From: an uncultured Candidatus Bathyarchaeia archaeon
GTDB lineage: Archaea > Thermoproteota > Bathyarchaeia > Bathyarchaeales > DTEX01
Direction of reading: 5' to 3'
Assembly (NCBI GenBank): GCA_964430035.1
Contig: CAYSEL010000010.1
Coordinates: 1 to 33,093 of the forward strand
Length of the DNA stretch: 33,093 nt
Positions within the stretch are counted from its first letter, which is position 1. The number at the start of each line of letters is the position of its first letter. Under the pieces are notes generated by a model. It was not told where the DNA came from. It worked only from the letters and a program-made list of their open reading frames with translations, and ran no database searches. Below, in pieces: positions 12,165-24,910 of this stretch. The position numbers and the translations under genes were made by a program.

Positions 12165-12497
12165 TCAGTAAAATTCAAGTCTCCAGACAGGGCAGATGAT
12201 GAGCAAATCATCCCTTCCAAACTCTTTAATAATGAACTGCTTCACATCTTCGTCTCGGACGTATTCTTCTCCATTCGAATGCTTCACCACAGGAATCTCG
12301 GTCTGCTTGAGCTTTTTTCCAGCAGCAAAATCAATGAAGACATATTGCTTTTCCCCATGTGGAAACATAAGTCTTAAACCTACAGGCGGCTTAGAAAGGG
12401 GCGACCTCTGCATGTTATAGACGATGCTCTTTGGGTGATGCAGAATTGCAAGCTTCTTGAAATCCTCCCATTTCTTGACTCGAATAATCTCCCCCAT
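12165..12497 (-). CDS. Hypothetical protein (110 aa), function unknown.
   Basis: Clean ORF with protein-like composition. I recognise no motif. The overlapping + strand ORF (12196..12420) has Ser/Cys/Phe-rich antisense-type composition. Confidence 0.5.
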   Translation of the reverse strand: MGEIIRVKKWEDFKKLAILHHPKSIVYNMQRSPLSKPPVGLRLMFPHGEKQYVFIDFAAGKKLKQTEIPVVKHSNGEEYVRDEDVKQFIIKEFGRDDLLIICPVWRLEFY

Positions 12498-12568: not shown

Positions 12569-12850
12569 TCAAAGTTTCTTAGATCTAAAGGGTTTGCAAT
12601 GACTTTCTTCTATAGTTCTTGTTAAATCTATCATAATATCCTCTATGTCAGCTATTGTTTTTTCGTCTTTCTTCGTATCTGTCGCCAGTAAGTCTTTCAT
12701 AAATGATTCAATTTCGTCTTTAAGCGACAGAAGGTCAATATTGCTATCTTTTCGCTTAGCATCCAAGTATTTTTTCAGTATCTCTTCAAAATGTGCTTCC
12801 ATAGTTTTCAGCCAAGACCTCAGTTTTAACGCCAACCAATTTTTGCTCAT
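12569..12850 (-). CDS. Hypothetical helical protein (93 aa), abutting the arsR stop and apparently translationally coupled to it.
   Basis: Its start at 12850 directly abuts the end of arsR at 12851. The sequence is charged and helix-prone (EEILKKYLDAKRK...EIESFMKDLL...). No motif recognised. Confidence 0.5.
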   Translation of the reverse strand: MSKNWLALKLRSWLKTMEAHFEEILKKYLDAKRKDSNIDLLSLKDEIESFMKDLLATDTKKDEKTIADIEDIMIDLTRTIEESHCKPFRSKKL

Positions 12851-13279
12851 CTATTTTTTTACATAGATGCGAGATATGACTTGTTGAAGGCATCTTACAG
12901 TCTCATTTTCTGCAATGTTGTAGAAGATCCATTTTCCTTCACGTCTCTCCTCTATCAGCCCCATATTCCTAAGTATACTTAGATGGTGAGAGACTGTCGG
13001 TTGCGTAGCTTTCAAGATGGCTGTTAACTCGCAAACGCACATGCTGCGGACCTCTAAAAGTTTCAAGATCGTTAACCTTGTTGGATGGGACAATGCTTTA
13101 AGAACTTCACTCGCTTGCTTGATCTCTCCTCTAACTCTTGCAATATGTCCAGTCAAATTCTCTATTTCTTTTCTAAGTTGAGTCTTGTCTTTTGAATCAG
13201 GACTAGACTGAATTAATCTTTCCAGACGCGCGGTTAAAAAGTTGTTTGCGCACATGGAAAAAACCCTCAAGTTTGTCAC
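12851..13279 (-). CDS. arsR: ArsR/SmtB-family metalloregulator with an alpha-3 CVC site and an unusually long N-terminal extension.
   Basis: LKALSHPTRLTILKLLEVRSMCVCELTAILKATQPTVSHHLSILRNMGLIEERREGKWIFY is a textbook ArsR winged HTH that includes the ELCVC-type metalloid-binding motif. The track start is a GTG at 13279. An ATG at 13255 preceded by GAGGG is an alternative start. Confidence 0.9.
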   Translation of the reverse strand: MTNLRVFSMCANNFLTARLERLIQSSPDSKDKTQLRKEIENLTGHIARVRGEIKQASEVLKALSHPTRLTILKLLEVRSMCVCELTAILKATQPTVSHHLSILRNMGLIEERREGKWIFYNIAENETVRCLQQVISRIYVKK

Positions 13280-13301
13280 AACAGATGAATAAAATCAATA
13301 G

Positions 13302-13309
13302 ATTTAAAT
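13302..13309. promoter_or_regulatory. Palindromic TATA-like element ATTTAAAT in the divergent arsR/operon intergenic region.
   Basis: This is the only strong AT-rich box between the arsR start (13255/13279) and the first operon gene (ATG 13354). It lies about 25-50 nt from both starts, so it could serve either direction. Confidence 0.3.
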
Positions 13310-13353
13310 ATTTCGATTTCAACCTTTTACAATCCAAACATAAGGTGATCAAT

Positions 13354-13524
13354 ATGTCGAGATGCGAGGTGTGTGGTAAGAGCGATGTCAGCTTACTATA
13401 CGCTGAACATAAGGATTTTGGCAGACTCATCAAACTTTGTCCAGACTGCTGGCGAGATGCCTACGCTGAAAATCGTTTAGTTTCAGGTTCAGGCAGCTCC
13501 GGCGGGTGTTCATGCGGCGGATGA
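13354..13524 (+). CDS. Small zinc-ribbon protein (56 aa) with a Gly/Ser-rich tail ending CSCGG.
   Basis: MSRCEVCGK...(22 aa)...CPDCW forms a CxxC...CxxC ribbon, followed by VSGSGSSGGCSCGG and a stop. AAGGTGAT lies 5 nt upstream of ATG 13354. The upstream part of the track ORF (13246..13353) overlaps arsR and the promoter and is rejected. Confidence 0.6.
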   Translation: MSRCEVCGKSDVSLLYAEHKDFGRLIKLCPDCWRDAYAENRLVSGSGSSGGCSCGG

Positions 13525-13547
13525 ACGATTAGGAAGAGGGAGAACAT

Positions 13548-13925
13548 ATGACTGGAAAACCTAGGTTTATAATGTGCTTCTGCACAGGTGAGTGCCCAGG
13601 TTTTGCGAAGCTAGATTTGTGGAAACTGATAAACTTTGTTAGAAACGAGCTAGATGTGGAATACGCCATTATACATCCGCAGCTATGCGTTACAGATGGA
13701 GACAACTTTTGGAGGGACTACTTAAAGGAGGACAGCGTGGACACTATGTATATCGTTGGAGGATGCGACCCAAGGATGCAAAGGAAGATGTTCAAGGATG
13801 CTTTTGCGGCGAAAGGTTTAGACTTTGACAGGCAAGTGGTCTCGCTTGACTTGAGGAACATGGTGACGGAAGAAGCAATGAAAAAAGTTGCAGAGACAGT
13901 TGAAAAGATGGTGAATCCCGCCTAG
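13548..13925 (+). CDS. MvhD/FlpD-like iron-sulfur protein (HdrA/MvhD-related electron-transfer module).
   Basis: 125 aa. The Cys pattern FIMCFCTGEC...(30 aa)...QLC...(25 aa)...GGCDP parallels the MvhD pattern F.CNWC...MCSGR...GGCHPGDC as I remember it. The assignment is by pattern only. Confidence 0.45.
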   Translation: MTGKPRFIMCFCTGECPGFAKLDLWKLINFVRNELDVEYAIIHPQLCVTDGDNFWRDYLKEDSVDTMYIVGGCDPRMQRKMFKDAFAAKGLDFDRQVVSLDLRNMVTEEAMKKVAETVEKMVNPA

Positions 13926-13974
13926 GAACTACAAAGACAGAAGTGCCGAACTTGATGTTAAAGGTGCAAAGGAA

Positions 13975-14256
13975 ATGGCTGAAAAAACGTACCTAGGTTT
14001 GCCTAGAAATGAGATAGACTGGTCCCCTAGGATAAACTATGAGCTCTGCATCAACTGTGGAGTCTGCCTTGAAAAATGCGACCACAAGGTCTACGCGAAA
14101 GATGGAGAAAAGGTTATAGTTGCTCAGCCCTATGAGTGCGTTGTTGGCTGCGAATCTTGTAGACATCGTTGTCCAACTGGAGCAATAAGCTTCCCGACTA
14201 GGGACGATTTGAAGTTGATGCTGAGAGCGTTGAGGAAAAAGTATGGTTATGGATAA
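13975..14256 (+). CDS. Dicluster [4Fe-4S] ferredoxin-domain protein.
   Basis: 93 aa. CINCGVCLEKC (CxxCxxCxxxC) plus CVVGCESCRHRCP (C-x3-C-x2-C-x3-CP). Confidence 0.8.
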   Translation: MAEKTYLGLPRNEIDWSPRINYELCINCGVCLEKCDHKVYAKDGEKVIVAQPYECVVGCESCRHRCPTGAISFPTRDDLKLMLRALRKKYGYG

Positions 14257-14287
14257 AACTATAGATGAAGTTTTTGGGGTGATTAGA

Positions 14288-14473
14288 ATGTGTGAATTTG
14301 ATCTGGTCGTTGATGGGAAGGTTGTCTTTAGAGAGGTAATCTATGCAGAGGCTGAAGATGGCAAGGTAGTAGTGAAAGACGTTACTAAAGAATCAAGAGA
14401 GTATCCAAATACTAGAATTGTGAAAGTTGATGTGAATCTGAGACGTTTGGTTCTTTCATCCATCTCATCTTAA
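14288..14473 (+). CDS. CooT-like small beta-barrel protein (putative metal-binding; N-terminal Met-Cys).
   Basis: 61 aa starting MCEFDLVVDGKVVFREVIYAEAEDGKVVVKDV....R...VDVNLRRLVL. The size, Cys2 and the alternating beta pattern resemble CooT (PF10133). GGGGTGA lies 6 nt upstream of ATG 14288. The track start at 14243 overlaps the ferredoxin gene and is rejected. Confidence 0.5.
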   Translation: MCEFDLVVDGKVVFREVIYAEAEDGKVVVKDVTKESREYPNTRIVKVDVNLRRLVLSSISS

Positions 14474-14515
14474 TAAAACTCGGCAAAACCTGAACAAATA
14501 AAGAGGTGAAATTAG

Positions 14516-14791
14516 ATGATTGTTGAGGTCTTAGGACCTGAACCTCCATGCGTACGTTGCCAGAAAACTTTGGAGGTCGTAAATAAGGCGGTGGAAGAGC
14601 TTAATCTTAATTGTGAGGTTAAAAAGGTCGATGCCTACGCCAAATCAACGATAGAGAAGTATGGGCTTGTTTTTACCCCAGCTGTTGCGATAGACGGGAA
14701 ACTCTTCATCGCTGGTAGGATTCCAAGTCTAGACGAGGTAAAACGCGTCTTGAAAGCACGCGTCCCCTCCAAAGACCAAAGCACCAAATAA
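14516..14791 (+). CDS. Small thioredoxin-fold redox-active disulfide protein (Thioredoxin_3 / redox_disulf_2 type), CVRC motif.
   Basis: 91 aa. The sequence is VEVLGPEPPCVRCQKT...VKKVD....I.KYG.V.TPAVAIDGKLFIAGRIPSLDEVKRVL. GAGGTGA SD upstream. Confidence 0.8.
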   Translation: MIVEVLGPEPPCVRCQKTLEVVNKAVEELNLNCEVKKVDAYAKSTIEKYGLVFTPAVAIDGKLFIAGRIPSLDEVKRVLKARVPSKDQSTK

Positions 14792-14807
14792 CACCAGGTG
14801 ATTACAA

Positions 14808-15182
14808 ATGTTGAAAGAAAAAGTTAGAATTGAAATATGCGAGACTGACCCATTCATCGGATGTTGTGGTCCAGGAAGAGCCTCATTAAAGGCGGCTGCA
14901 GAGCTACGTAACACGCTTATCGAGAGGAATGAGACTGTTAAGGCGCTTAGGGAAGAGTTTAAGGGAGAGATTGAAATCGAGAGGCAGATTATAAGCAGAA
15001 GAAGAGGTTATAATATGTACCCGCCGCACATTCGTGAGCTACTTCAAGCTCAAACTCCGCTTCCCTTCATCCTTGTAAACGGTCAACTTGTATCACAGGG
15101 GAAGTTTCCATCCTTGGAAGAGTTTAGACAACTAATCAAAGGTTTCATTAAGAGATCTACCGAGTTGATTTCCAACTGTTAG
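14808..15182 (+). CDS. ArsD-like thioredoxin-fold metallochaperone homolog (GCCGPG motif).
   Basis: 124 aa. IEICETDPFIGCCGPG resembles ArsD VFDPAMCCSTGVCG. The C-terminal LPFILVNGQLVSQGKFPSLEEFRQLI resembles ArsD LPLLLLDGETVMAGRYPKRAELARW. AGGTGA SD upstream. Confidence 0.55.
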   Translation: MLKEKVRIEICETDPFIGCCGPGRASLKAAAELRNTLIERNETVKALREEFKGEIEIERQIISRRRGYNMYPPHIRELLQAQTPLPFILVNGQLVSQGKFPSLEEFRQLIKGFIKRSTELISNC

Positions 15183-15195
15183 AGGTGATGATAAA

Positions 15196-15468
15196 TTGAA
15201 GAGAGTGGTTGCCGAAGTGATTGGTCCAAATCCTCCCTGCCAAAGATGCATTTCCCTAAAGGCGAATGTAGAGGTTGCCGCTGAGGTTCTCAAGGCTGAA
15301 GGGATTGAAGTTGAGATAAAAAGGTTAGACATTATGTCAAAGGAAGTACTATCGAAATATGGCTTACTCCTTTCTCCAGCCTTGGCGGTGAATGGAACAG
15401 TTAAGACGATGGGTTGGGTTCCAGACAACGCAACTATTGAGAAAATCTTGAAGGAGTCGGTTAAATAG
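15196..15468 (+). CDS. Second small thioredoxin-fold redox-active disulfide protein (Thioredoxin_3 type), CQRC motif.
   Basis: 90 aa. The sequence is AEVIGPNPPCQRCISL...IKRLD......KYGLLLSPALAVNGTVKTMGWVPDNATIEKIL. It is a paralog of 14516..14791. TTG start 5 nt after AGGTGA. Confidence 0.8.
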   Translation: MKRVVAEVIGPNPPCQRCISLKANVEVAAEVLKAEGIEVEIKRLDIMSKEVLSKYGLLLSPALAVNGTVKTMGWVPDNATIEKILKESVK

Positions 15469-15479
15469 CAAATTTCTCG

Positions 15480-16529
15480 GTGAGTTTTATGGCGAATAAT
15501 GTCCGACTGATACGCACTGCGTTGCTCCTCACATTCGTGTTCGCCGTTATAGGGCTTCTAATTTACTCACGTATCTCAGCTTACTCCTTAGCGCCCGTAA
15601 TGCAACCAGCGGACTTCTCAAAGTACAGTTGGTATGAGATCCCATTTCAATATCTACTCGACTATTTCGGGCATGGGTGGATATGCCTGCTCTTCGCCTT
15701 CGTAGCCGCGGGACTCGTCTACGAGTTCATGCCGAAAGAATTAATTACGAAATATATGAGCAGCAGTAAGAGTCTAGGCTACGCGATAGGGGCAGGACTT
15801 GCTCCCTTCTTCACTGTTTGCTCATGTACGATGGTTCCACTTTTCGCTGGAATACTGTACACTGGTGCAGGCATAGGTCCAGCAATCACCTTTCTCCTAA
15901 TGGCTCCATCCGCAAATATTCTGAGTATCCTAATAACAGGCGAATTCATCTCTTGGGAGATTGCTGGAGTAAGAATACTTGTGTCTCTAGCTGCAGCAGT
16001 AACAGCTGGCTTAGTAGTCTCAAAAACTCCATGGGGAAAAACTTTGGAAAGATCGCGTCAGATCGGCCAAAATCGCGGCGTAGCCAGCGGAGCTATTGAG
16101 ATCGTTAAGCCTCCGCTTGATGAAAGGTTAATTTCAGCCCTAAAGTTTGGAGTTTACCTTGCAAGACAGATTCTCCCCTACTTTCTCGCTGGTTTAGTCA
16201 TAGTGAGTTATGTTACAGCCTACACCCCTCAAGAACTCGTTCAAGGCTACTTAACCGGTGTGACTGGCGTTCTTATCGCCTCAGTTGCGGCTGGCCCTCT
16301 TTACACCCCTACGCTTGTCGAAGTGATCCTGGGCAGAAGCTTCCTTAGCCTAGGAATGTCAAAAGCTGCGTTGCTGGCGTGGCTCATGGGTCAACCATGG
16401 GACCTACCGAACATGGCGGCTGTCTCAAAGATTACAGGATGGAAAGTAGTTGTAACTTATGCTTTTGTCCTATGGATCTGCGCCGTGACTCTTCCATTAC
16501 TTTATGGGGTAACGACAGGGTCAATATGA
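15480..16529 (+). CDS. ArsP/DUF318-type permease (PF03773-like) with a CxC motif.
   Basis: 349 aa with about 8-10 TM helices. LAPFFTVCSCTMVPLFAGI is the conserved Cys-X-Cys-containing helix of this permease family. The ATG at 15489 is an alternative start. Confidence 0.8.
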   Translation: MSFMANNVRLIRTALLLTFVFAVIGLLIYSRISAYSLAPVMQPADFSKYSWYEIPFQYLLDYFGHGWICLLFAFVAAGLVYEFMPKELITKYMSSSKSLGYAIGAGLAPFFTVCSCTMVPLFAGILYTGAGIGPAITFLLMAPSANILSILITGEFISWEIAGVRILVSLAAAVTAGLVVSKTPWGKTLERSRQIGQNRGVASGAIEIVKPPLDERLISALKFGVYLARQILPYFLAGLVIVSYVTAYTPQELVQGYLTGVTGVLIASVAAGPLYTPTLVEVILGRSFLSLGMSKAALLAWLMGQPWDLPNMAAVSKITGWKVVVTYAFVLWICAVTLPLLYGVTTGSI

Positions 16530-18368: not shown

Positions 18369-18429
18369 AACAATGATAGAAACGCTAATATCTTTTCGAT
18401 ACCTCATTAAATAGGGAAGTGTTGAATCT

Positions 18430-18744
18430 ATGCCCATTGACCCAGACTTCCAGAAGAATCGAAGGAAGGTTGGAGAGCAAGAAGGCGTAGCAATTTGGGA
18501 CCCTTATGACCCCCCTGAGAAGATGGGTATACGTGGAACAAATGTTGCTGTCGACTGGGACATATGCGAAGGGCATGGAATCTGCATTGAGGTCTGCCCA
18601 GTTCAGCTCTATGAGTGGCGCGAGACGCCAGGCCACCCCAAATCCGGGAAGAAAGCTTTTCCAGCAAGAGAATCCACATGTATACAATGCCTTGCCTGCG
18701 AGACACAGTGCCCAGTTCAAGCAATAAAGATCACACCGCCTTGA
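18430..18744 (+). CDS. Sulfolobus-type ferredoxin with an N-terminal extension (3Fe-4S/4Fe-4S dicluster).
   Basis: 104 aa. It is colinear with the Sulfolobus zinc-containing ferredoxin as I recall it (IDP.....NR..VGE...PP...GI.GT.V.VD.D.C...G.C...CPV......TPGHP...KKA.P.....C..C.AC...CPV.AI...PP). The cluster motifs are CEGHGICIEVCP and CIQCLACETQCP. Confidence 0.85.
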   Translation: MPIDPDFQKNRRKVGEQEGVAIWDPYDPPEKMGIRGTNVAVDWDICEGHGICIEVCPVQLYEWRETPGHPKSGKKAFPARESTCIQCLACETQCPVQAIKITPP

Positions 18745-19225
18745 CAATTTACACCTTATGATCCTCCATTTTTCTGATTTTCAAGGAGATTAGATTTCTA
18801 TTAGTTTGAGCATGTGTTCAATATTTGAGGAAATCCATAACCTCATAATTGTTGAGGATCCACGTTATCTTCAGCTATCCACTTCTCTAGAATTAGCGTT
18901 AAAACTTTGCTTCTTGAGAACAGATTGCTGAGCAGAAAAGCCATTGAAGCCTCAGACATGTGCAACCATGCGGTTTTCTAGACGACGTAACATTGATAAG
19001 ACTTGTTGACTAGATGCAAATGAAAAAGATTGAAGGCGTCTACACTGCGGGCGACTGCACATGCAGCAACGATCATTGGAAACGGTGTGATGACGATGAT
19101 ATGGGCATAAAAGATCCGTCAATGAAGCTAAAACTCAAAGATGCAGAAAATTAAAAAAGGAGCGAGCATTCCTCATCAAAACGGAAAAAGAGACTGCACT
19201 GGAAAAATTTGGGGGTAGGCATTGA

Positions 19226-23135: not shown

Positions 23136-23561
23136 GTGGAAAAGATGGTGAAGGTCGAAGGTTATGAGGTCCCGGAAGGGCTTTACTACTCGAAAGATTG
23201 GATGTGGATTAAGAAAGAGGACAGTAAGGTAAGAATAGGCATAACAGACTATGCGCAGAAGCAGCTGAAAGATGTTGTCTTCGCTGAACTACCAAAAACG
23301 GGAGAAAAAATCGTAAGAGGCGAACCATTCGGCACCCTTGAGTCTGTCAAGGCAGTTTCTGAACTGATTGCTCCAGTCAGCGGTACGGTTGAGCAAGTTA
23401 ATAGCGAAGTCATAGACAAACCTGAGACGCTTAATGAAGACCCCTACGGTGAGGGTTGGCTCTTGGTAGTTTCGCCTACAAGCCTAGAGGAGGACCTTAA
23501 AACTCTCATGAACTTTGAAAGAGCTGTTGAATGGCATAAGGAACTTGCTAAAGGAAGCTAG
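23136..23561 (+). CDS. gcvH: Glycine-cleavage-system H protein / lipoyl carrier protein.
   Basis: Motifs are YSKDWMW, RIGITDYAQ and ESVKAVSELIAPVSG (lipoyl-Lys motif), followed by NEDPYGEGWL. The ATG at 23145, 7 nt after GAGGTG, is probably the true start. Confidence 0.92.
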   Translation: MEKMVKVEGYEVPEGLYYSKDWMWIKKEDSKVRIGITDYAQKQLKDVVFAELPKTGEKIVRGEPFGTLESVKAVSELIAPVSGTVEQVNSEVIDKPETLNEDPYGEGWLLVVSPTSLEEDLKTLMNFERAVEWHKELAKGS

Positions 23562-23566
23562 GCCGT

Positions 23567-24910
23567 ATGCCTCGAAAAATAGTTATCATCGGGGCGAATG
23601 CGGCTGGATTAGATGCAGCTGTAGCCGCTAGAAAGACTGATAGGGATGCTGAGATCACCCTTATTACTAAAGAGAATGTCGGAGCCTATTCGAGATGCGG
23701 TCTACCCTTCGCCCTCGGAGGGCAGATAAAATCTTTTGAAGACTTAATTGTTTACCCCTACAGCTTCTACCGGATGATGAAGTTTGACTTAAGGTTAGAG
23801 ACCACCGCTAAATGTATAGATACAAAGGCAAAGAAAGTTGAGGTCGAGACTAGAGAAGGTGAAAAGGAAATCCTTGAGTTTGACAGCCTTATTCTAGCCA
23901 CGGGTTCATACTTCTTTAAACCACCTGTGAAGGGGATAGAGAAAGAAGGTGTTATGCTTCTCCACACGATTGAGGAAGGCAAAAAGATTGACCAGATGAT
24001 TAAGGATGGAGCAGATTCTGCGGTTGTCCTTGGCGCTGGATTTCTAGGACTAGAGACAGCTGTAGCCCTTGTCGAGAGAGGGGTGAAAACGACGGTTGTT
24101 GAGATGCTTCCATACGTCCTTCCAAGGTTACTAGACTCAGACATGGCTAATGATGTTCAGAGAATGTTGGAAGAGAAGGGCTTGCGCATAATTGTTGGGC
24201 AAGCAGCTGAAGAAATTTTCGGAGAAGAACGCGCCGAAGGTGTTTTAGTTGCTGGGGAGAAGATTCCAGCCGACTTCGTCATAAACGCTTGTGGCGTTAG
24301 ACCAAATGTTGAGCTTGCTCAGAGGTCAGGTATTACTCTAGGCAAGACGGGAGGGATTTTAACGAATGTACGGATGGAGACAAACATAAAAGACATCTAT
24401 GCAGCTGGAGATTGTGCCGAGACAATTCACTTAATAACAGGAGCACCTATTATTCCAGCCTTGGGAACAACGGCTGTACGGCAGGGTAAGATAGCTGGGG
24501 TAAATGCTGCAGGTGGTTATGCAACATATCAAGGAGCCTTATGTTCTGCTGTTGCGAAGATGTTTGATTTTGAGGTCGGAGTGACTGGACTGAACGAGGC
24601 CTTCGCGAAACGCTACGGGTTTGAGACTATTATTGGTAAGATCACCTCTAAGACTAGAGCCGATTACTATCCAGGAGCCCAGCCTATAAAGATTAAGCTC
24701 GTTATCGATAAGGACTCGAAGAGAATAATTGGCGGTCAAATAATTGGCGGTGAAGAGGTGACCCAAAGGATAAATGCACTCTCAATAGCGATACAGAAGC
24801 AGATTTCCATCTACGAGTTGGCGAAGGCTGACACGTGCTACGCTCCACCTTTGAACGAGACTTGGGAACCTTTGGTTCTCGCCGCTGAGACTGCCCTTAA
24901 GAAGATTTAA
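23567..24910 (+). CDS. FAD-dependent pyridine-nucleotide-disulfide oxidoreductase of the CoA-disulfide reductase / NADH oxidase (single redox-Cys) type.
   Basis: 447 aa. KIVIIGANAAG (FAD), YSRCGLPF (single active-site Cys context), VVLGAGFLGLE (NAD(P)H) and IYAAGDCAE. No C-terminal rhodanese domain. Confidence 0.85.
   Translation: MPRKIVIIGANAAGLDAAVAARKTDRDAEITLITKENVGAYSRCGLPFALGGQIKSFEDLIVYPYSFYRMMKFDLRLETTAKCIDTKAKKVEVETREGEKEILEFDSLILATGSYFFKPPVKGIEKEGVMLLHTIEEGKKIDQMIKDGADSAVVLGAGFLGLETAVALVERGVKTTVVEMLPYVLPRLLDSDMANDVQRMLEEKGLRIIVGQAAEEIFGEERAEGVLVAGEKIPADFVINACGVRPNVELAQRSGITLGKTGGILTNVRMETNIKDIYAAGDCAETIHLITGAPIIPALGTTAVRQGKIAGVNAAGGYATYQGALCSAVAKMFDFEVGVTGLNEAFAKRYGFETIIGKITSKTRADYYPGAQPIKIKLVIDKDSKRIIGGQIIGGEEVTQRINALSIAIQKQISIYELAKADTCYAPPLNETWEPLVLAAETALKKI

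Follow-up and report, generated by a model that had tools for sequence, protein, structure and literature searches.

A stand-alone HdrA-like iron-sulfur protein and its ferredoxin in a putative ArsR-controlled metalloid detoxification operon of a Bathyarchaeia archaeon

Eight genes, g1 to g8 in operon order, run together on the forward strand (13354-16529) of contig CAYSEL010000010.1, which was analysed over its positions 1 to 33,093 (the window, 33,093 nucleotides) and belongs to an uncultured Bathyarchaeia archaeon; they diverge from a gene for an ArsR/SmtB metalloregulator. Two of them, g2 and g3, encode a stand-alone homologue of the N-terminal iron-sulfur domain of HdrA and a dicluster-type ferredoxin, and the last two encode a thioredoxin-fold protein and an ArsP-type permease. 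We read the whole as an ArsR-repressed metalloid (arsenic-type) detoxification operon, in which the iron-sulfur pair would feed ferredoxin-level electrons into thiol or substrate chemistry before export, and we give this reading a probability of about one half. It builds on the observed gene content and family relationships, on co-conservation, on the link to ars genes and on a conserved operator-like palindrome.

Arsenic detoxification has been worked out well for aerobes and model bacteria, in which NADPH-linked thioredoxin or glutaredoxin regenerates ArsC and ArsA/ArsB is supplied by ArsD; it is far less understood in uncultured anaerobes and hot-spring archaea. The g2 proteins form a strongly conserved, uncharacterised iron-sulfur family tied to ArsR, ArsP, ACR3 and ArsC-like genes, and g2 with its ferredoxin offers a specific candidate, open to testing, for a step of metalloid resistance that is coupled to ferredoxin. 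The small dithiol proteins of the cluster (thioredoxin-like CxxC, ArsD-like CC and cysteine-tailed zinc ribbon) may reveal how substrate is delivered to ArsP-type permeases, and a candidate operator for an archaeal ArsR is gained. The neighbourhood of ArsR, ArsP and a thioredoxin-fold protein is already known and annotated. What appears undescribed in the literature searched is the g2 family with its obligate ferredoxin, its link to ars clusters in both domains and the accessory vicinal-cysteine proteins; full-text searches returned no paper linking an HdrA-like protein to ArsP or ArsR. The initial annotation of this DNA knew of no description of the neighbourhood combined with an iron-sulfur pair; none was found in the literature searched, and the combination recurs in bacterial phyla and in Bathyarchaeia. 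That the pair represents a novel redox component of metalloid resistance in anaerobes, coupled to ferredoxin, is a real possibility.

The eight genes are the following.

13354-13524, forward strand: g1, 56-aa zinc ribbon (CxxC...CxxC) with a Gly/Ser linker and a C-terminal CSC (GGCSCGG tail)
13548-13925, forward strand: g2, stand-alone HdrA N-terminal-domain-like iron-sulfur protein, 125 aa
13975-14256, forward strand: g3, dicluster-type ferredoxin of a distinct subfamily with conserved N- and C-terminal extensions
14288-14473, forward strand: g4, 61-aa CooT-like protein starting Met-Cys, with a GGGGTGA site upstream
14516-14791, forward strand: g5, thioredoxin-fold CVRC protein of the MTH895/ArsE family
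14808-15182, forward strand: g6, ArsD-like protein of thioredoxin fold in which a vicinal cysteine pair is invariant (EIYEGDPFxGCCGPG)
15196-15468, forward strand: g7, thioredoxin-fold PPCQRC protein, constant partner of the permease
15489-16529, forward strand: g8, ArsP_1/DUF318-type permease with a TVCSCT motif; alternative GTG start at 15480

The initial annotation had described a co-directional run of eight genes with short gaps and, mostly, GGTGA/GAGGTG sites, each product carrying a cysteine motif; coordinates, strands, spacing and all motifs from g1 to g8 were verified against the sequence. The gaps measure 23, 49, 31, 42, 16, 13 and 11 nt, the last (g7-g8) becoming 20 nt when g8 starts at ATG 15489. 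This start, which gives 346 aa, is more likely, because a GGTGA site lies 4 nt upstream of it and the JGI/ENA gene calls use it. Shine-Dalgarno sites of the GGTGA/GAGGTG type precede g1, g4, g5, g6, g7 and g8, and AGGAG-like and AGGTG sites precede g2 and g3. Every gene of the cluster has homologues elsewhere, so that none is a chance open reading frame (ORF). The host is a thermophilic Bathyarchaeia-like archaeon. The same contig was found in two hot-spring-type metagenome assemblies, and the closest relatives of g2 and of the permease are in Bathyarchaeia metagenome-assembled genomes.

The g2 protein bears the motif CFCTGEC...C...GGC. In an alignment of 22 members, cysteines C10, C12, C16, C47 and C73 are invariant, as are Arg, His and Asn residues beyond the cluster ligands, with a mean column identity of 72%. 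Searched against PDB sequences, the family profile matched the N-terminal domain of HdrA (9sfi_A; E=0.0016, residues 9-89), four cysteines of which align with g2 positions 10, 12, 47 and 73. The NCBIfam HdrA N-terminus matches g2 as well (E=0.002), and the best six Foldseek matches of its AlphaFold2 (AF2) model (pLDDT 86) are all HdrA (E ~1e-4 to 5e-4, TMq 0.56-0.63). By profile and by fold, g2 is a stand-alone homologue of the HdrA N-terminal iron-sulfur domain. It had been taken for an MvhD/FlpD-like protein (PF02662) in the initial annotation, an assignment that we abandon: g2 had no Pfam match at E<=0.1, no Pfam model exists for its family, and MvhD is not among the top fold matches.

A single [4Fe-4S] cluster is most likely held by g2. 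In HdrA, the N-domain cluster is ligated by cysteines of the domain and one cysteine supplied in trans by a partner subunit, and it sits between the FAD and the inserted ferredoxin domain, beyond which comes free ferredoxin (PMC9012536). The HdrA N-domain thus lies on the branch to ferredoxin, and g2 and g3 therefore look like that low-potential iron-sulfur branch freed from its flavin domain, the dicluster partner being the parallel of the inserted ferredoxin domain. The additional invariant cysteine of g2, C16, could take the place of the trans ligand or serve as a reactive thiol. Unlike HdrA, g2 has no FAD/thioredoxin-reductase domain and no HdrB, HdrC or MvhD, and its context is of the ars type, not methanogenic; neither hdrB and hdrC nor an FAD domain was found in the window or in the g2 neighbourhoods.

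The partner protein g3 had been recognised as a dicluster ferredoxin from the outset, and indeed matches Fer4 at 35 bits (cut-off 21), and also Fer4_21; its eight invariant cysteines form a CxxCxxCxxxC motif and a variant second motif, CxxxCxxCxxxCP. In many archaeal loci (L007, L009, L011, L013, L016-L018 and L023, L-numbers denoting the homologous loci that were fetched), a second ferredoxin paralogue lies between g2 and the g3-type gene, with an altered first motif (CDPxKCDYFCVDYC) and a second motif short of one cysteine; the window carries the g3-type ferredoxin only.

The g2 family is small. Against 1.84 billion cluster representatives, its profile found only 141 relatives, nearly all of them stand-alone proteins of 110-135 aa. 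The long matches with Pfam hits were HdrA-type flavoproteins, at marginal E-values, and one DUF116 fusion; the other long matches had no Pfam hit. A fusion search with the same profile gave no g2 joined to a thioredoxin-fold protein or a permease, and there was no match on plasmids. Homology of g2 to the neighbouring DGC-domain proteins was considered and dropped, the hhalign probability of 3.8% being not significant. About 160 of 185,579 species genomes encode g2, at 63-86% identity to the window protein. In Archaea they comprise Bathyarchaeia, Brockarchaeota, Methanomethylicia, Odinarchaeia, Hadarchaeales and Nitrososphaeria; in Bacteria they include Chloroflexota, Omnitrophota, Ratteibacteria, Acetothermia, WOR-3, Aminicenantes, Caldisericota, Atribacterota and Coprothermobacterota. 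Identity between the two domains is ~70%, and a range of 67-89% was obtained for family members across Archaea and Bacteria.

For a census of gene neighbourhoods, ORFs were called in 113 unique g2 loci and searched with the window proteins and with probes derived from neighbours. Within 5 kb of g2, the following were counted.

g3-type ferredoxin after g2: 111 of 113 loci
ArsR: 72 of 113 loci
PF13192 thioredoxin-fold protein: 37 of 113 loci
ArsP-type permease: 36 of 113 loci
DGC-domain protein (PF08859): 26 of 113 loci
CcdA-like membrane protein: 16 of 113 loci
GcvH-like protein: 12 of 113 loci
Zinc ribbon: 8 of 113 loci
ACR3: 7 of 113 loci, one representative confirmed by TIGR00832 (469 bits)
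LMW-PTP ArsC-like gene: 4 of 113 loci
ArsD-like g6: 4 of 113 loci

The g2 protein and its ferredoxin are an obligate pair, and 91 of the 113 loci hold at least one ars-type marker anywhere in the fetched locus. ArsR, permease, thioredoxin-fold protein, g2 and ferredoxin all lie on one strand in 17 loci. As a compact co-directional operon, in the order ArsR-permease-thioredoxin-g2-ferredoxin, they occur in Omnitrophota, Ratteibacteria, Acetothermia and Anaerolineae, the tightest examples (in the first three of these) having gaps of ~-4 to 15 nt; the same order is found in further phyla, for example Aminicenantes and Eubacteriales, and recurs in Bathyarchaeia. The conservation of the eight-gene order, a point raised by the initial annotation, holds for sub-blocks: the full order occurs only in the window's own population (L004, L005), and a nearly identical set is found reordered in L016, L036 and L038. 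Two independently conserved two-gene cores emerge, thioredoxin-like protein plus permease and g2 plus ferredoxin.

A Chloroflexi locus (UBA7937; L067, 4277-9314) has one co-directional run of ArsR, a GcvH-like protein, two DGC proteins, OsmC, a thioredoxin-fold protein, ACR3, g2 and ferredoxin, and also a CooT-like protein and a CC-tailed zinc ribbon. It is a bacterial counterpart of the window gene set, with ACR3 replacing ArsP.

The export module revolves around g8, which matches PF03773 at 140 bits (E=1e-40, cut-off 32.3), as expected of the DUF318/ArsP-type permease initially proposed; the CxC of its TVCSCT motif, as CSC or CVCSC, is present in 51 of 52 permease relatives. The initial annotation had called the grouping of ArsR, ArsP-type permease and a small thioredoxin-fold protein a recurring one, and so it is: among 28 permease relatives of 46-78% identity, a g7-type gene lies directly upstream in ~26 and a divergent ArsR in most, g6 in ~8 and the g2-ferredoxin pair in 3. 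Members of the g6 family all sit in a (thioredoxin)-g6-thioredoxin-permease block. Distant ArsP_1 permeases occur in annotated ars clusters of Staphylococcus and Sulfuricella plasmids, the Sulfuricella one next to a small vicinal-cysteine protein (GDCCVxC).

Two loci keep an intact g6-thioredoxin-permease block with remnants upstream, a short g2 fragment in L086 (4494-4616) and the C-terminal half of a g3-type ferredoxin in L088 (4783-4995). Because of these remnants, the iron-sulfur pair appears to have been secondarily lost in both lineages. Directly downstream of the same block, on Bathyarchaeia-type contigs, L087 (7367-9577) and L088 (7005-9222) carry NikR, FmdE, TM1506 and CooT (PF10133) genes, and the regulator side of L087 holds PadR and a P-type ATPase.

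The two thioredoxin-fold proteins were rightly named as such, both belonging to PF13192: g5 (E=2.5e-18) also passes TIGR00412 (64.6 bits, cut-off 62), and g7 (E=1e-11, 45 bits, cut-off 24.8) reaches only 42 bits with that model. The CxxC of g7-type proteins is conserved among relatives. For g6, the ArsD-like label holds at superfamily level only. The top Foldseek matches of its AF2 model (pLDDT 84) are ArsD (3ktb, 3mwh, 3kgk), followed by thioredoxins, at E ~2e-3 and TM ~0.5; the label fails the ArsD cut-offs (PF06953, 25.5 bits against 27; NF033727, 27.4 bits against 90), and the third cysteine of ArsD is missing, C19 and C20 being the sole invariant cysteines of the 18-member family. Sequence searches of the PDB, with g6 alone or with its family profile, gave no match to ArsD, which leaves the fold search as the only support.

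In the case of g4, the CooT-like label is transitive. Pfam CooT (PF10133) scores 19.4 bits, below its cut-off of 27, and g4 is clearly homologous, by phmmer at 59 and 43 bits, to the PF10133-annotated genes of L087 and L088. Among g2 and g6 loci, CooT-like genes were found only in the window, L067 (with a Met-Cys start, directly after the ferredoxin), L076, L087 and L088. A sequence comparison of g4 with the PDB was uninformative as to CooT (E ~1), and a word-index search for homologues retrieved only g4 itself, its relatives coming from phmmer of the fetched loci. No curated family in Pfam or NCBIfam covers g1; proteins built in the same way, their tail being GSGSSGGCCG or CSC, are encoded on 10 other distinct archaeal contigs, and loci of Chloroflexi and Omnitrophota hold FmdB-type ribbons whose tail is GGxCCS.

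On the other side of the divergent intergenic region, the elements are as follows.

12165-12497, reverse strand: orf110, conserved small protein, last gene of the arsR-side transcription unit
12569-12850, reverse strand: orf93, small protein whose ATG abuts the ArsR stop codon
12851-13255, reverse strand: ArsR/SmtB metalloregulator, CVC motif in alpha-3, N terminus extended by ~50 aa
13294-13317, no strand: 24-bp imperfect palindrome ATCAATAGATTTAAATATTTCGAT, candidate ArsR operator and promoter of the eight-gene operon

The regulator matches HTH_5 (PF01022; E=1e-19, 70.5 bits, cut-off 22) and NF033788 (101.6 bits, cut-off 55), which bears out its initial identification as a divergent ArsR/SmtB protein. 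Its start is most likely ATG 13255 (134 aa), with GTG 13279 as an alternative that would give 142 aa. The alpha-3 helix reads SMCVCEL, with the CVC motif that was first noted, and CVC(E) is kept in most aligned ArsRs beside g2. We take the As(III) site of R773 ArsR to be ELCVCDLC, a CxC in the first helix of the helix-turn-helix plus a third thiol; the window protein has no third cysteine in the alpha-3 helix, and has Cys2 if translation starts at 13255. In archaeal ArsRs beside g2, the N terminus is extended by ~50 aa that include a conserved RLxRLxxSGCP...D motif.

The palindrome ATCAATAGATTTAAATATTTCGAT occurs once in the window (0 expected by chance) and has at its centre an archaeal TATA-like box, TTTAAATA. 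Its core, ATTTAAATATTTCGAT, is found directly upstream of g2 in L013, L016, L036, L043 and L046 and, from coordinates, in L023 and L033; L028 and L045 have near-variants of it. Archaeal repressors usually block initiation by means of an operator overlapping the TATA box, and the conserved palindrome over this box is likely the ArsR operator. Scans for sigma-70 promoters and intrinsic terminators were uninformative, the host being an archaeon. ArsR, orf93 and orf110 make up a small operon of their own, in which orf93 is probably translationally coupled to ArsR since its ATG abuts the ArsR stop. Homologues of orf93 are found in L016/L115, L087, L089 and L110, and those of orf110 adjoin ArsR or the permease module in 10 g2 loci (L004/L005 not counted) and 3 g6 loci; neither protein matches a family in Pfam or NCBIfam.

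From this material we infer the type of the iron-sulfur cluster, the direction of electron flow, the substrate and every hand-off from protein to protein. A thiophilic metalloid would bind the CVC of ArsR, which would then leave the TATA-overlapping palindrome and allow the eight genes to be co-transcribed. Electrons from reduced cellular ferredoxin would pass by way of g3 to the cluster of g2, the two proteins of the iron-sulfur core; g2 would in turn re-reduce the CxxC and vicinal-cysteine proteins after these have reduced a pentavalent or oxidised substrate, or would merely keep them reduced. The trivalent species, carried on dithiols (g6 GCCG, the g1 CSC tail, g5/g7 CxxC and possibly g4 Cys2), would be passed to the CSC of the permease and exported, the export core being g7, with its paralogue g5, and g8 with its membrane CSC. 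The arsenic context is supported by ACR3 and ArsC-like genes in the same operons, by the arsenic induction of a related operon in strain ND132 (see below), by the ArsP_1 permeases of plasmid ars clusters and by the CVC-type ArsR. The more specific proposal that g2 and its ferredoxin form a ferredoxin-driven reductase, either one dedicated to the disulfides of the proteins that carry metalloids to export or one acting on arsenate, thioarsenate or methylarsenate directly, is tentative, and we would sooner bet against it than for it. If true, the pair would be the low-potential redox component so far missing from the picture of how strict anaerobes and thermophiles detoxify arsenic, and would span more than ten phyla of both domains.

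Several observations weigh against an arsenic-type operon fed by the iron-sulfur pair. The two cores occur apart in most genomes. Most close relatives of the permease lack g2 and its ferredoxin, so that the export module can do without them; conversely, about two thirds of the g2-ferredoxin loci have no permease or thioredoxin-fold gene within 5 kb, and the pair must be able to work without either. ArsC-like genes stand alongside the pair in L013, L065, L132, L169 and L175. No redox step is needed for As(III) to bind to dithiols, which may remain reduced unaided in a strict anaerobe. The window ArsR has SSPD in place of SGCP, and therefore misses the N-terminal cysteine of many archaeal relatives. 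The best curated models for the permease are the Cu/Zn exporter family SO_0444 (NF033936), at 78 bits against a cut-off of 300, and SaoE, at 66.6 against 325. Finally, the CooT-like gene and the NikR-FmdE-TM1506-CooT neighbours in L087 and L088 hint at nickel.

Among known systems, the closest parallel that we compared is an ArsR-ArsP-ArsE(PF13192)-DGC operon of Pseudodesulfovibrio mercurii ND132 (DND132_2311-2314), which is induced by arsenic (bioRxiv 10.1101/2022.10.17.512643). It shares with the window an ArsR-family regulator and an ArsP_1 permease with CxC, next to which a small PF13192 CxxC protein is encoded; in bacterial relatives of the window cluster, g2 and ferredoxin follow the thioredoxin-fold gene in the slot that the DGC gene has in ND132. 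The window has no DGC gene, and adds g2 and ferredoxin, a second thioredoxin-fold protein and the ArsD-like vicinal-cysteine, cysteine-tailed zinc-ribbon and CooT-like proteins. The initial annotation had called the mechanism of such neighbourhoods unresolved; in view of the arsenic induction of the ND132 operon, this is not wholly so.

ArsD carries As(III) on a dithiol and passes it on to a transport system, and g6 resembles it in its predicted thioredoxin fold and in the vicinal cysteine pair in the loop after the first strand. Unlike ArsD, g6 is without the third conserved cysteine, which we take to be Cys18 beside the Cys12-Cys13 pair, and has no ArsA in the window, so that its partner would be a secondary permease. 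The absence of canonical arsA, arsB/acr3, arsC and arsM from the window, as first noted, was upheld by Pfam on the larger ORFs and by ACR3 and ArsC probes, which found no match. The ArsP of Campylobacter jejuni is reportedly (Chen and co-workers, 2015) an efflux permease for methylarsenite and roxarsone(III); g8 belongs to the same PF03773 family and has the same membrane CxC, but is distant, reaches no NCBIfam equivalog and is always coupled to a thioredoxin-fold gene.

The ferredoxin:thioredoxin reductase (FTR) of plastids and cyanobacteria, with FTR-like ferredoxin:disulfide reductases in methanogens, is a [4Fe-4S] protein that uses ferredoxin electrons to reduce the CxxC of thioredoxin-fold proteins. 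The analogy with g2 is functional only, there being no relation in sequence or fold, and g2 has one spare cysteine where FTR has a redox-active disulfide beside the cluster. The Sec-assisted organometallic (SAO) system is said, by Haft and Gwadz in 2023, to comprise the efflux protein SaoE, the thioredoxin-like SaoT and SaoC, which ends in Cys-Cys-COOH. Its ArsP-like exporter, thioredoxin-like protein and C-terminal cysteine-pair protein resemble g8, g5/g7 and the g1 tail; unlike SAO, the window has no ABC transporter or selenocysteine, and no MerB-like (SaoL) gene was found among the window ORFs scanned. The ArsEFG organoarsenical system, reportedly described by Chen, Zhang and Rosen in 2019, combines the thioredoxin-like ArsE with the transporter ArsG; the window has an ArsE-family protein but no ArsG-like (NF040495) gene. 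The CcdA-like protein of 16 related loci matches ArsG weakly, at 32 bits against a cut-off of 200.

Other explanations have to be weighed. Catalysis could lie with the pair of g2 and ferredoxin itself: drawing on ferredoxin, it would reduce a pentavalent or oxidised metalloid (arsenate, thioarsenate, methylarsenate, perhaps antimonate) and so provide ArsP or ACR3 with the trivalent substrate, with the thioredoxin-fold, ArsD-like and zinc-ribbon proteins serving as carriers only. The pair often occurs with ArsR alone or with ArsR and ACR3, in the usual position of arsC (L120, L135, L141), and there is no arsC in the window; the fifth cysteine and the invariant Arg, His and Asn of g2 also speak for catalysis, and so high an identity between the domains (~70%) would suit an enzyme whose small substrate is fixed. 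Nevertheless, we consider both the catalytic role and the confinement of the other proteins to carrying unlikely. ArsC-like genes coexist with the pair in the five loci named above, which also weakens the simpler idea of a plain ArsC replacement, the g2 fold is used by no known arsenate reductase, and arsenate reduction needs no ferredoxin-level potential. Alternatively, the operon may handle a thiophilic transition metal (Ni, Co, Cd, Zn or Cu) and not a metalloid, ArsR being a CadC/SmtB-type sensor, the permease an SO_0444-like exporter, and the CooT and vicinal-cysteine proteins metal chaperones. SO_0444 is the best curated permease model, but its score lies far below the cut-off; a CooT-like gene is part of the cluster, but such genes are found in few g2 or g6 loci only. 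The nickel-type genes adjoining the g6-thioredoxin-permease block in L087 and L088, the PadR that replaces or accompanies ArsR beside a P-type ATPase in L087, and the presence of alpha-3 CVC in Cd/Pb/Zn sensors as well would agree with a metal. Since the same families occur amid ACR3, ArsC-like and arsenic-induced ArsP-ArsE-DGC contexts, we hold a metal operon to be quite improbable.

A thiol/disulfide or sulfur-stress regulon is a very doubtful proposition. Here, the ArsR-family protein would use its cysteines to sense oxidants or reactive sulfur, the permease would move a thiol or sulfur compound, and g2 with its ferredoxin would be a ferredoxin:disulfide reductase for general thioredoxin-like proteins. 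ArsR-family sulfur sensors do exist, but the window protein scores only 63.8 bits with BigR (cut-off 155) and has the alpha-3 CVC, not the cysteine arrangement of BigR/SqrR. Related loci have CcdA/DsbD-like proteins (16 loci), OsmC, AhpC/TSA, rubrerythrin/ferritin and universal stress proteins as neighbours, and a SOD gene adjoins the window cluster, in keeping with such a regulon; the arsenic-specific ACR3 and ArsC-like genes that recur in the same operons are at odds with it. There might also be no relay at all, the iron-sulfur pair, CooT and export being independent modules that in this lineage happen to have come under a single promoter. The full gene order is indeed restricted to L004 and L005, the modules are separate in most genomes and shuffled in L016, L036 and L038, and the export block has outlived the decay of g2 and ferredoxin in L086 and L088. 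Yet the pair stands beside the export module in both domains, in varied orders and even with overlapping or near-overlapping genes, and a permease lies within 5 kb in 36 of the 113 g2 loci, as compared with a rough expectation of well under 1% for a gene of one or two copies, which makes a mere mosaic highly improbable.

Other neighbours recur around g2. A very conserved 135-aa DGC protein (PF08859) is encoded on the same strand directly upstream of g2 (~150-550 nt) in Brockarchaeota and Thermoproteota loci (L015, L019-L021, L024-L027, L029, L031 and L032), where no ArsR or permease was detected in the fetched sequence. GcvH-like proteins, of the lipoyl-carrier type, often stand beside DGC proteins (L056, L061, L066, L067, L077, L080, L083 and others), and a protein-bound dithiol such as lipoamide would be a natural As(III) ligand. 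In three Bathyarchaeia loci (L028, L043, L046), a nitroreductase-family protein (PF00881) and a glutamate-synthase-domain protein are encoded ~3 kb downstream of g2 on the opposite strand; nitro-reduction has reportedly been seen with the ArsEFG system, which may bear on the PF00881 neighbours.

The remaining genes of the window are housekeeping genes (GH4, RtcB, ERCC4, HhH-GPD, SOD, HtrA, MoeA, GcvH, RadA, fumarase). At 23136-24910, a GcvH homologue precedes a lipoamide-dehydrogenase-like protein (pyridine-nucleotide-disulfide oxidoreductase with a dimerisation domain), a pair outside the cluster that looks like ordinary glycine-cleavage or lipoamide metabolism. At 18385-18747, a forward-strand ORF for a ferredoxin-type protein of 104 aa overlaps two antisense ORFs of similar length, and family support (Fer4, public gene calls) exists for the forward-strand ORF only.

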